This document shows, piece by piece, positions 2,971 through 8,951 of a stretch of DNA of 64,000 nucleotides; the first letter of the stretch is position 1; each line of letters starts with the position of its first letter. The notes beneath the pieces are model-generated. The model made no database searches and was not told the origin of the DNA. It worked only from the letters and a program-made list of their open reading frames with translations. Origin of the DNA: a virus; the IMG/VR virus record IMGVR_UViG_3300049740_002954, positions 1-64,000 of that record, one strand, 5' to 3'. A program made the translations under genes and the position numbers.

Positions 2971-3056
2971 AAGATGCAAATTTTGAGTTTCACATACTTA
3001 ATACAATAAATTATTAAATACAATATCATTTTGCATGATAAAACAAGCTAAACAAT

Positions 3057-3296
3057 ATGATTGAATCACTATCTCCTAATGTGTCAATGTTTGCAACAGA
3101 GCAAGAGCTTCGTAATGAGTTAACCACAAAAGAATATGTTTATGTTAAACTCGCGAAGTTAGACGAATTCGTTCAAGATTTGTATCACTGCACACAATAT
3201 CCAAATAACAAAGTAGTTGATGCAAATAATACAATCAAATACATTAAACAAATACAAGAAGACTTATTAAGAGTAAACCGAAATAATTGCAAATAA
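3057..3296 (+). CDS. hypothetical protein
   Basis: 79-aa ORF on the local coding strand. Confidence 0.6.
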   Translation: MIESLSPNVSMFATEQELRNELTTKEYVYVKLAKLDEFVQDLYHCTQYPNNKVVDANNTIKYIKQIQEDLLRVNRNNCK

Positions 3297-3431
3297 AATA
3301 TGATTGAATCAAAAGACATTGTACTACAAATAAGAAAATTATTAGAAGATAAATTAGACTTAAAAATAAAAGATCATGGCTTATGGAGAATACAATGTTT
3401 AATACATGATGAAATAAAAGAAAAAAAAGAG

Positions 3432-3460
3432 TTGACAAATAATAAAGTATAGAGTATAAT
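3432..3460 (+). promoter_or_regulatory. perfect-consensus sigma70 promoter
   Basis: TTGACA-17-TATAAT preceded by an A-tract (UP-element-like). Confidence 0.9.
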
Positions 3461-3466
3461 AGAAGC

Positions 3467-3796
3467 ATAATAAGTTGAGAAACAAACTCAAATAAATCAA
3501 ATAAATTGATCTTTAACATTTTTTAGAATTTGGAAGTTCTCGACGGAGACTTCCTGTGGGTGACTGAATAAGCTCGTCGTGAGCGAGCTAAGGTACGCGA
3601 TTCTCTGTGGTGGAGTGCTAATGGGCAAATGTCTGAGGCAGGACAATACCAAGTCTAATCGTTGTAGGAAGTAGGTACTCAATGAACTGCTGTTCACGCC
3701 GAAAACTTGAGGGTATACAGGAATCCCTCCCCACTTCAATTTCTTAATCATATCCCTAGCCCACCCAAGTCCTACCCCTTGGGTGGGCTTTTTTAT
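3467..3796 (+). ncRNA. candidate structured ncRNA (~330 nt transcript, structured core 3532-3734) with boxB/boxA-like leader
   Basis: No + strand ORF between the consensus promoter and the terminator; GC-richer than its flanks; at least 7 helices can be drawn; TGATCTTTAACA at 3507-3518. Confidence 0.7.
3758..3796 (+). terminator. intrinsic terminator
   Basis: AGCCCACCCAAG-loop-CTTGGGTGGGCT followed by a T-tract. Confidence 0.85.
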
Positions 3797-3798
3797 GG

Positions 3799-3827
3799 TT
3801 GACAGATCAATCGATATCATTCATACT
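3799..3827 (+). promoter_or_regulatory. sigma70-type promoter, probably leaderless
   Basis: TTGACA-17-CATACT; ATG at 3834. Confidence 0.7.
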
Positions 3828-3833
3828 AGTATC

Positions 3834-4088
3834 ATGAAGACATTAAAAGACATACTTGCTAACTACGGATACATCAACTCAGCTCAACTCGCAGAAATTG
3901 CCGAGCATTTTCCACACATGAAAGTTGTTATTAAATGGGGTGGACTACCTCGCGATCGACTTCCTGCTTTTCAAGCTGTTGAAACGATCGAGCGAGTCGA
4001 ACGAGAAAATTTAGATTATTGCAGAGAAGTATTTCTTTGTGGTCAAGATTGCGACAATCTTCGCACAGCACTTCACATTGCATCCTAA
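3834..4088 (+). CDS. hypothetical protein
   Basis: Start moved to MKTLKDIL after the promoter. Confidence 0.7.
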   Translation: MKTLKDILANYGYINSAQLAEIAEHFPHMKVVIKWGGLPRDRLPAFQAVETIERVERENLDYCREVFLCGQDCDNLRTALHIAS

Positions 4089-4106
4089 CCTCAAACAAAA
4101 AAAGAT

Positions 4107-4682
4107 ATGATTAACCCAGCAGAAGTAACAAATTACAATAGAACACAATACGAATTAGAAGAATTTATTCTATTTTGTATTAATGTTGCAGGAAAGAAAA
4201 GTTCAATCGAAGCACCTAAATTAGAAGTGTTTATAGAGAGAGCAAAAAACATAACAAAAGAAACAACACCATTTAATTGTATAAGAAAATTAATTGAGTT
4301 GGGCCGGCTGCAAGAGATCATGCATTGGGCTAAGCTAAGTCCGTATGCCCAGCGATACAATTCTTATGTTTCTGTAGTTGCAATCAATGACCTCCAGACA
4401 GTTACCCTGAATCGCTTACTGCAGGTTCCTGGCGTAGGTCTCAAAACTGCCAGGTTTTTCTTGTCGCATTCACGAGAAGACTTTGACGAACCAATGCTGG
4501 ACACACATATCTTACGGTTCCTTCGCGATCAAGGATACAAGGACGCACCGAAAAGCACGCCTTCAAATGTAGGTATCTACAACTATTACGCCAATGTATT
4601 CAAGATGTTCGCTCGAACTCTAGGCAAATCAGTCACTGATCTTGATCTTGAAATTTGGAAGAAGTACTCGGGTACTGCATAA
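4107..4682 (+). CDS. HhH-GPD DNA glycosylase/AP lyase (8-oxoguanine glycosylase-like)
   Basis: HhH motif LLQVPGVGLKTARFFL with catalytic Lys; PMLDTHILRFL with catalytic Asp. Confidence 0.8.
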   Translation: MINPAEVTNYNRTQYELEEFILFCINVAGKKSSIEAPKLEVFIERAKNITKETTPFNCIRKLIELGRLQEIMHWAKLSPYAQRYNSYVSVVAINDLQTVTLNRLLQVPGVGLKTARFFLSHSREDFDEPMLDTHILRFLRDQGYKDAPKSTPSNVGIYNYYANVFKMFARTLGKSVTDLDLEIWKKYSGTA

Positions 4683-4690
4683 AAAATTTT

Positions 4691-4768
4691 ATGGAAGTAA
4701 CAACAATAATAATAATCAGTAGTATCGTGGGCATCGTAAGACTAATCAGAGACGCTCGCGACTGGTGA
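4691..4768 (+). CDS. small single-TM peptide (25 aa)
   Basis: MEVTTIIIISSIVGIVRLIRDARDW; paralog at 10577-10663. Confidence 0.65.
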   Translation: MEVTTIIIISSIVGIVRLIRDARDW

Positions 4769-4781
4769 AAATTCCAAACGA

Positions 4782-4855
4782 CAAATAACCAAATAACAAA
4801 TAACATCTATTCAAATAATGAGTTAGCCAAATACAAAATACAAATACCCAAATAA
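4782..4855 (+). repeat. CAAATA tract
   Basis: About 8 CAAATA-like units at irregular spacing. Confidence 0.8.
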
Positions 4856-4905
4856 GGTATAGAAAAATAAAATTTATAAAATTAGAAGAAAAAGTCAATT
4901 ATAAT

Positions 4906-4982
4906 GTAAGTGATTGAATAAGAACGAGTTGTGGCACGCGCCCTGGGTTATTATCATAAGTCGTTATAATTCAAAGAGTTAT
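4906..4982 (+). repeat. 77-bp IHF-arm element R1 (divergent core)
   Basis: GTAAGTGATTGA-3-AGAACGAGTTGT / 23 bp / ATAAGTCGTTAT-3-TCAAAGAGTTAT. Confidence 0.7.
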
Positions 4983-5011
4983 GTGTTATATAAATTTTTT
5001 GAAAAAAAGTG

Positions 5012-8173: not shown

Positions 8174-8201
8174 TTGACATACGCATTTATTCTGTCATAA
8201 T
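8174..8201 (+). promoter_or_regulatory. sigma70-type promoter, probably leaderless
   Basis: TTGACA-16-CATAAT; ATG at 8208. Confidence 0.8.
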
Positions 8202-8207
8202 GAAGTC

Positions 8208-8951
8208 ATGATTAAGACAACAATTCTCACTCAAGGAAACGCAAAGATAGTCAAAGGCGAAGAGCTTGGCTATGTGACAAAAGGCATCCACTTCGCTCCT
8301 GCTAGTCTCTCAGGCAATGAAGTTTGCCAATGGCGAAGTAAAGGTTGCACTGCTTCTTGTCTCAATACGGCAGGTCGTGGACGCATGAATTCAATCCAAG
8401 CATCAAGAATAGCAAAGACAAAGTTGTTCTTTGACAAACAATTCGATTTCCTTGCCAAGTTATCGAAAGAAATTTCTTCTTCAATCAAGTCAGCCACAAA
8501 GAAGGAAATGAATTCTGTTTTTCGTCTTAACCTTACGAGCGACATTTCTTGGGAATCAGTTTTCTTCAATGAAAGACAACCAAAAACAATTTTCGACAAG
8601 TTTCCGTCAATTCAATTTTACGATTATACAAAGTCATTCAAAAGAATGTGTGCTTTTCTTGACAAGCCTTTCACTAAAGATGAACAAAAATTTCCATCTA
8701 ATTACCATCTAACTTTCTCTCGTTCAGAAACAAACGATAAGAAATGTGAAATGGTTCTTGCTATGGGTGGCAATGTTGCCGTTGTGTTTCGCAATCAACT
8801 TCCAAAAACTTGGAAAGGTTATGAAGTTGTCAATGGTGATTCAAACGATTTGCGTTTCCTTGACAAACAAGGTGTGGTCGTTGGCTTAATCGAGAAAGGT
8901 ATGGCAAAGAAAGACGAAACAGGATTCGTGCAAGAAGGAATTGACTCTTGA
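8208..8951 (+). CDS. GP88-family protein (radical-SAM-like Cys motif)
   Basis: VCQWRSKGCTASCLNTAGRG, RLNLTSD, QFYDYTK, NYHLTFS, GDSNDLRFLD. Confidence 0.8.
   Translation: MIKTTILTQGNAKIVKGEELGYVTKGIHFAPASLSGNEVCQWRSKGCTASCLNTAGRGRMNSIQASRIAKTKLFFDKQFDFLAKLSKEISSSIKSATKKEMNSVFRLNLTSDISWESVFFNERQPKTIFDKFPSIQFYDYTKSFKRMCAFLDKPFTKDEQKFPSNYHLTFSRSETNDKKCEMVLAMGGNVAVVFRNQLPKTWKGYEVVNGDSNDLRFLDKQGVVVGLIEKGMAKKDETGFVQEGIDS

Follow-up and report, generated by a model that had tools for sequence, protein, structure and literature searches.

A manA-family RNA in a clade of uncultured marine phages, probably a free-standing gene behind a leader with a boxA-like word

Positions 3432-3796 of a 64-kb window of an uncultured marine phage contig (IMG/VR record IMGVR_UViG_3300049740_002954; coordinates throughout are those of the window, with 1 as its first letter) carry a manA-family RNA (Rfam RF01745) between transcription signals of its own. 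The order within 3425-3836 is a promoter, a leader hairpin, a boxA-like word, a GC-richer stretch free of open reading frames (ORFs), an intrinsic terminator, a second promoter-like site, and the ATG of a gene for a protein of 84 amino acids (aa). The arrangement is probably that of a free-standing manA-family RNA gene with a product of ~330 nucleotides (nt), from ~3467 to ~3794, and not that of a 5′ untranslated region (5′ UTR) of the next gene. The manA RNA has been without a known function since 2010 and is filed as a probable riboswitch. In the clade of related phages described here it appears as its own gene, and the conserved promoter, the conserved leader, and a terminator whose sequence drifts argue for a free RNA product.

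The assignment to manA leaves almost no room for doubt. The match at 3532-3739 spans the whole Rfam model and is the only one in an Rfam scan of the entire window, and the 81-kb virus record that contains the window has a single manA copy. A permissive Rfam scan of 3380-3860 (E up to 1) added only seven sub-threshold matches, at 12 to 21 bits against cut-offs of 40 to 59; we took these as chance, and five of the seven end within 3794-3797, at the terminator. A scan of the window for tRNA and tmRNA genes found none. A preliminary description of this DNA, made from the sequence alone, had not recognized the RNA, which turns out to be a full-length member of a catalogued family. The same description had set beforehand that an Rfam hit would remove the novelty of the RNA class, and the match to manA does so: this is a new copy of a catalogued RNA family in an unusual gene layout, and no new RNA class.

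Weinberg et al. (2010, PMC2864571) reported manA from marine metagenomes and from T4-like cyanophages, at sites that could be 5′ UTRs, and considered it a probable riboswitch; Rfam files the family as Cis-reg, a type that goes back to this 5′-UTR layout. The window RNA has the same conserved blocks, helices, and loop complementarities as the manA motif, of which T4-like cyanophages provide examples. It differs from other manA RNAs in its helix-3 loop, which is a GNRA tetraloop (GUGA here and GUAA in L140; related loci are given by L numbers), and from the manA model in the outer part of helix 8, which does not fit and shows marked mismatches in the alignment.

To count covariation, we transferred the Rfam structure to the coordinates of the window and scored it on a MAFFT alignment, A1, that was not fitted to the structure and holds 24 distinct members of the 35 clade loci. 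L126 and L133 were left out because upstream sequence was missing or unmatched, as were the duplicates or near-duplicates L129, L130, L138, L139, L144, L146, L148, L149, and L153; the count also omits the outer part of helix 8, for which the clade gave no placement. On A1, 93.2% of cells pair, compared with a shuffled mean of 85.6% and at most 48.7% in slid controls, and 23 of 62 pairs show changes on both sides. None of 500 shuffles reached the observed covariation on four of five measures, whereas 359 of 500 did so on the fifth, "further pair types." The Rfam manA fold is kept by compensatory change in the clade. Six of the eight helices drawn in the preliminary description are found both in the Rfam model and in the covariation (the GGAAG..CTTCC hairpin, GTGGG/CCCAC, the GTGA-loop hairpin, TGCT/GGCA, TGAAC/GTTCA, and GAGGG/CCCTC). 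The other two, GAGTGCT/GGTACTC and TGTC/GACA, had to be rejected, with 55.7% of cells pairing, zero double changes, and values not above shuffles.

The signals that surround this core were identified as the preliminary description had placed them, namely the promoter, the leader hairpin, the boxA-like word, the GC-richer ORF-free stretch, and the strong terminator (Table 1). The promoter matches the consensus perfectly, and such a match is unique in the 64-kb window (0.06 expected; at least one in 5 of 100 shuffles); its TTGAC is unchanged in all 24 aligned relatives. GC content is 0.445 to 0.465 over 3501-3800, against 0.22 to 0.23 over 3201-3500, and the + strand has no ORF of at least 40 aa between 3452 and 3783. 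The − strand does hold an open frame of 107 aa (3497-3820), the conservation of which the preliminary description had named as evidence against an RNA. That the stretch codes for this antisense protein has a negligible probability in our estimate: among the 24 relatives the longest antisense frame has anywhere from 55 to 117 aa, the frame has no Pfam family, and the substitutions in the helices are compensatory.

In all 23 distinct relatives with enough flanking sequence, the manA core is followed by a hairpin, with a folding energy of −13 to −25 kcal/mol, and a T run. The spacer before it measures 17 to 36 nt, or 97 nt in L134, and from one lineage to another these hairpins bear no relation in sequence. 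The proposal made at the outset, of a structured non-coding RNA that runs from a promoter to a terminator of its own, is supported. We compared the complementarity of the terminator arms to their own core with that to swapped cores and found no anti-terminator pairing (5′ arm, 5.26 own versus 5.36 swapped; 3′ arm, 5.09 versus 5.04). Beyond the terminator, the TTGAC of the second promoter-like site is unchanged in 24 of 24 relatives, and in most of them TTGACA begins 35 nt before the ATG. Because the terminator drifts while the core stays fixed, and its arms are not complementary to their own core, no expression platform is seen; with the downstream gene under its own promoter, this argues for a free-standing RNA gene and not a 5′-UTR switch. 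The 5′-UTR location on which the Cis-reg type is based is absent here, as both a terminator and a promoter stand before the ATG, in the window as in 23 of 23 relatives, and the alternative pairing between sensing domain and terminator that would make a terminator platform was not found in the clade. Apart from this, L134 and L132 have in common an extra segment of ~75 to 100 nt between core and terminator, which was seen in these two relatives only.

The wider manA family provides a background for this layout. By pattern, we defined at least 136 manA copies, at least 125 of them distinct; seven without flanks were excluded, and L002, L091, and L120 were discarded as chance hits, with at most 54% of conserved columns matched. 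The 92 other distinct copies that we compared with the clade are a sample among the matches listed, include many close relatives, and do not amount to a census. A promoter-like site ends within 12 nt of the core in 87 of the 92 copies listed, many of which lie just before an ORF, whereas in the window clade a conserved 65-nt leader stands between the two. A terminator-like hairpin follows the core in 30 of these 92 copies, in contrast to the window clade, where a terminator always does and a separate promoter serves the next gene. A tRNA gene lies within 20 nt downstream in 7 of the 92 copies listed, and 15 fit no layout class. Downstream ORFs checked among the listed copies include those for a single-stranded DNA-binding protein, transaldolase, Hsp20, and a 2-oxoglutarate (2OG) oxygenase. 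The family is therefore mixed: ORF-proximal copies fit the 5′-UTR view, and copies flanked by tRNA genes or terminators do not. The tRNA genes start 3 to 17 nt past manA in L049/L067 (which have the same sequence), L007, L022, L033, L052, L087, and L093, a position among or upstream of tRNA genes that does not suit a 5′-UTR switch. In L049/L067, manA lies between tRNA-Gly and tRNA-Pro/Asn and has no promoter of its own; there it would be set free, as stable RNAs are, when the tRNAs are processed.

With these data we can weigh a cis-acting riboswitch, in which the ligand-bound core would set the choice between a stop at 3794 and read-through into the 84-aa gene and beyond. The Rfam type and the published rating (PMC2864571) favor such a switch, as do the listed copies directly before ORFs, those in which a terminator-like hairpin follows, and an RNA-library contig that bridges the terminator (X15, see below). 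We nevertheless regard it as unlikely for the window RNA. The terminator, 17 to 36 nt past a constant core, differs in sequence in every lineage and has no anti-terminator partner, and only 6 nt before its ATG the next gene retains a separate promoter; on a read-through transcript that ATG would be internal, with no visible Shine-Dalgarno sequence. No manA ligand is known in the literature searched, and a 2026 preprint (10.64898/2026.07.01.735769) presents assemblies made of RNA only.

A different role in cis could be imagined by comparison with the put RNA of phage HK022, a processive anti-terminator that acts in cis on its polymerase. If the folded manA RNA worked in this way, it would carry early transcription past the terminator, which would suit a promoter-like site next to the core in most listed copies, the terminator that follows in some of them and in all 23 clade members, and the one RNA-library contig that crosses it. 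We hold this to be very improbable: the RNA has no likeness to put in sequence or fold, manA being the sole Rfam hit, such a role would be superfluous for copies in tRNA arrays or immediately ahead of ORFs, and a separate promoter lies past the terminator.

We now return to the free-standing RNA gene and to its leader. The leader hairpin pairs in 100% of cells in the 24 distinct relatives, with four pairs invariant and a single compensatory pair, G-C to A-U, in two sequences. The word TGATCTTTAACA resembles the E. coli boxA, and its part GATCTTTAACA (3508-3518) fits GYTCTTTAANA at 10 of 11 positions. This gamma-proteobacterial consensus is given in PMC5725501, which also describes other boxA sites bound by NusB/NusE, including one in the suhB 5′ UTR. 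One-mismatch matches to the E. coli boxA occur twice in the window, compared with 0.91 expected and at least two in 21 of 100 shuffles, which is not significant alone. Since one near-match is no more than chance would give, the evidence for the word is its conservation: the core TCTTT is unchanged in 24 of 24 aligned relatives. Promoter and boxA-like word occur together in 32 of the 35 related loci, each of which has the pair a single time, with the word 41 to 59 nt past the −10 box, and within these loci the word is found behind a promoter only at the manA unit. The three loci without the pattern are L126, in which no leader was found, L133, whose upstream sequence is truncated, and L151, which has a variant word; a full 11/11 match to the consensus is present in L131, L152, and L156. 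A hairpin followed by a boxA-like word, as noted in the preliminary description, is a conserved arrangement among these phages.

In relatives such as L068, L131, L132, L136, L145, L151, and L152, inserts of ~60 to 180 nt part the word from manA, and the word stays with the promoter, which suits a signal read early in transcription. None of the inserts has an Rfam match at the gathering score, and they have the look of additional RNA modules that occupy one slot within the manA transcription unit. Inserts (A1 columns 115-260; L068 1700-1775) are partly common to the otherwise different lineages L136, L132, and L145.

In rRNA leaders, a boxB hairpin precedes boxA, and the window hairpin occupies the boxB position. 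The leader resembles those of rRNA operons and other boxA sites such as that of the suhB 5′ UTR (PMC5725501) in that a hairpin and then a boxA-like word stand close to a strong promoter and before an untranslated structured RNA; it differs from the rRNA-operon leader in belonging to a phage and in preceding a 0.2-kb RNA instead of rRNA. Use of the leader by Nus factors is a plausible, though tentative, suggestion drawn from this analogy; that an abundant RNA would titrate these factors, as the preliminary description also proposed, is speculation. A reading that we find somewhat easier to hold, while still short of an even chance, keeps the RNA gene and does without Nus factors: the hairpin would stabilize the 5′ end, and the U-rich word would serve in processing or bind some other protein of host or phage. 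This would accommodate an 11/12 match to the E. coli word at chance level, a second position that is off the consensus in most relatives, with perfect matches only in the three loci named, and a leader that is A/U-rich like its surroundings. It explains less readily why TCTTT is invariant, why the word keeps its distance to the −10 box even where inserts precede manA, and why the order of hairpin and word is that of rRNA leaders. No paper in the literature searched deals with both manA RNA and boxA, and the layout of promoter, rRNA-like leader, manA, and terminator is not described there.

Two sets of loops in the core are complementary to each other. The loops of helices 5 and 7 pair in 79.8% of cells in the MAFFT alignment, with a change from U-A to C-G in L128 and L141 and uncompensated changes in L123, L143, and L150. 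For the loops of helices 8 and 9, 95.8% of cells pair compared with 79.1% in shuffles, none of 500 shuffles reaches the observed value, and all four pairs show changes on both sides, for example ACUG/CAGU versus ACUAAA/UUUAGU. Family-wide, the complementarity of these helix 8/9 loops is 4.13 for own and 3.80 for swapped partners, and none of 2000 shuffles reaches the own value. Covariation of this kind is equally compatible with pairing within one RNA and pairing between copies.

According to the preprint 10.64898/2026.07.01.735769, manA RNAs form decamers and, in one case, a 60-mer icosahedral cage in vitro, RNA-only and seen by cryo-electron microscopy (cryo-EM). The assemblies are described there as composed of pentamers held by kissing loops L5-L7′ and L8-L9′, and another manA variant as held by L3-L8′ plus a GNRA-receptor contact. 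These RNAs belong to the same family, and their kissing-loop labels are those of the loop pairs that covary here (5/7 and 8/9); they are, on the other hand, other family members studied in vitro, while the window RNA is known here from its sequence. From the complementary, covarying loops and the kissing loops of the preprint, we infer that the window RNA may associate with its own copies, and a free RNA product fits the in vitro finding of manA cages. Self-assembly of free manA RNA in cells is possible by this analogy, though doubtful. GOLLD, ROOL, and OLE, large ornate RNAs of bacteria and phages, are likewise stand-alone structured RNAs, often phage-borne, that reportedly self-associate in vitro; manA is far shorter, has no likeness to them in sequence or model, and differs in its interfaces. 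What the clade offers is a natural transcription unit with a defined ~330-nt product and covarying loop pairs that can be mutated.

In the proposed course of events, the host σ70 polymerase would initiate near 3467 at the consensus promoter and transcribe first the 65-nt leader, whose hairpin and boxA-like word are conserved and whose function is a matter of proposal. Like the leaders of rRNA operons, it might recruit NusB/NusE, which would allow a lengthy untranslated transcript to escape Rho and to fold its long-range closing helix. The ~208-nt manA core would follow, with the fold shown by covariance model and covariation, and transcription would stop near 3794 at an intrinsic terminator that is kept in function and not in sequence, giving a discrete ~330-nt RNA from what would be an early gene. 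A bolder extension, speculative and in its entirety improbable, is that manA here is the subunit of an early-made, RNA-only particle from an rRNA-style unit: a Nus-loaded boxA-like leader would protect it from Rho and aid folding, loop contacts of helices 5/7 and 8/9 would build pentamer-based shells that hold or sequester something, and the extra modules would decorate or load the particle.

A number of observations weigh against one or another part of this reading, and we set them out together. The minimum free energy of the RNA, −62 kcal/mol, is not above chance in stability (z = −0.67; 44 of 200 shuffles fold as well), so that the evidence for structure rests on the covariance model and the covariation. 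The boxA-like word departs from the consensus at position 2, with A for Y, as it does in most relatives. An ORF begins within 60 nt downstream, with no terminator, in 40 of the 92 other manA copies listed. The window's own match between the loops of helices 8 and 9 is only 3 to 4 base pairs (bp), and the loop labels of the preprint were matched to helices by counting from 5′ to 3′, which is an inference of ours. The only clue to the host is the metagenome bin that contains L156 (see below). Lastly, the four RNA-library runs on 3000-5000 are assembled contigs, from which transcript ends and levels cannot be read and in which DNA may be present. The X15 run, an oligo-dT library, has a contig at 3706-3967 that crosses the terminator and the second promoter, through read-through or DNA.

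Among the other runs, the X20 metatranscriptome has a single contig in 3000-5000, which spans 3582-3738 and lies inside the manA core, and X16 has a contig at 3799-4516. X15 has no coverage over 3410-3705, X16 none before 3799, and X17 none after 3445, and from these limits we draw no conclusion. Taken together, the RNA-library contigs are at most a weak hint of transcription, and read-through is possible.

The phage itself encodes a large terminase, a Clp-type ATPase, a large DNA polymerase, a ribonucleotide reductase, and a DnaB-like helicase within the window. A blastn search of 3300-4100 against 50,697 deposited phage records gave no match, and 14 DNA runs from 13 studies (seawater and marine metagenomes) contain at least 77% of sampled window words. 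The 84-aa gene led to 31 IMG/VR relatives at 60 to 87% identity, on contigs of up to 214 kb, and the leader word added three loci; the same RNA module stands upstream of the 84-aa gene in these related phage loci, and manA scored above its cut-off in all 20 relatives scanned, at 61 to 93 bits. A scan of genome contigs gave two further loci. One of them, L155, comes from a gut Ruminococcaceae assembly; it lacks a manA hit and was rejected as a chance match. The other, L156 (GTDB contig JAYQMT010000004.1, 210,818 bases), is binned in a Cellvibrionales metagenome-assembled genome and carries the whole module, with a boxA-like word that is perfect against GYTCTTTAANA but with no clear TTGACA promoter upstream. 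L156 is probably a phage genome of the clade inside the bin, and its hint of a Cellvibrionales host is weak and may only reflect binning.

Table 1. Features of the manA transcription unit and its surroundings, in window coordinates
Feature	Position	Strand	Remarks
σ70-type promoter, TTGACA-17-TATAAT	3432-3460	+	12/12 consensus positions; start at ~3467 predicted from spacing only
Leader hairpin, TTGAG-7-CTCAA, 5 bp, 7-nt loop	3475-3491	+	At boxB position of rRNA leaders
boxA-like word, TGATCTTTAACA	3507-3518	+	One mismatch to E. coli word
manA RNA (RF01745)	3532-3739	+	87.6 bits, gathering score 55.2; E 5e-21; model 1-192 of 192
manA core, 5′ hairpin	3532-3554	+	Rfam model
manA core, closing helix	3556-3560 with 3730-3734	+	Rfam model
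manA core, GUGA-loop hairpin	3571-3589	+	Rfam model
manA core, three-hairpin domain	3597-3662	+	Rfam model
manA core, hairpin	3683-3696	+	Rfam model
manA core, hairpin	3709-3729	+	Rfam model
Loops of helices 5/7	3608-3611 (UGGU) with 3648-3651 (ACCA), within 3606-3652	+	Complementary
Loops of helices 8/9	3686-3689 with 3718-3721	+	In the window 3 of 4 pair (CUG with CAG)
Intrinsic terminator, 12-bp stem (8 G-C), 8-nt loop, T run	3758-3796	+	Stem 3758-3789, then five T; −21.7 kcal/mol
Second promoter-like site, TTGACA-17-CATACT	3799-3827	+	6 nt before ATG of 84-aa gene
84-aa gene	3834-4088	+	Synteny anchor, outside the RNA; no Pfam family
TTGACA promoters with gene starts	1148-1186, 2212-2249, 3799-3836, 8174-8210		−10 box 6-7 nt before ATG

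The spacing between promoter and start codon at the 84-aa gene recurs elsewhere in the window, as early genes with their ATG at 1184, 2247, 3834, and 8208 begin 6 to 7 nt past the −10 box of TTGACA promoters. From the sequence, such promoter-proximal ATGs would be predicted to give leaderless mRNAs. The X16 contig already starts at 3799, which speaks against a leaderless start at 3834, although contigs cannot show starts and DNA is possible. Pfam searches of the flanking ORFs and of the antisense frame returned only a sub-threshold match, a weak Ogg-HhH likeness (PF22175, E 0.0023, 17.9 bits, cut-off 27) in the 191-aa protein encoded at 4107-4682.

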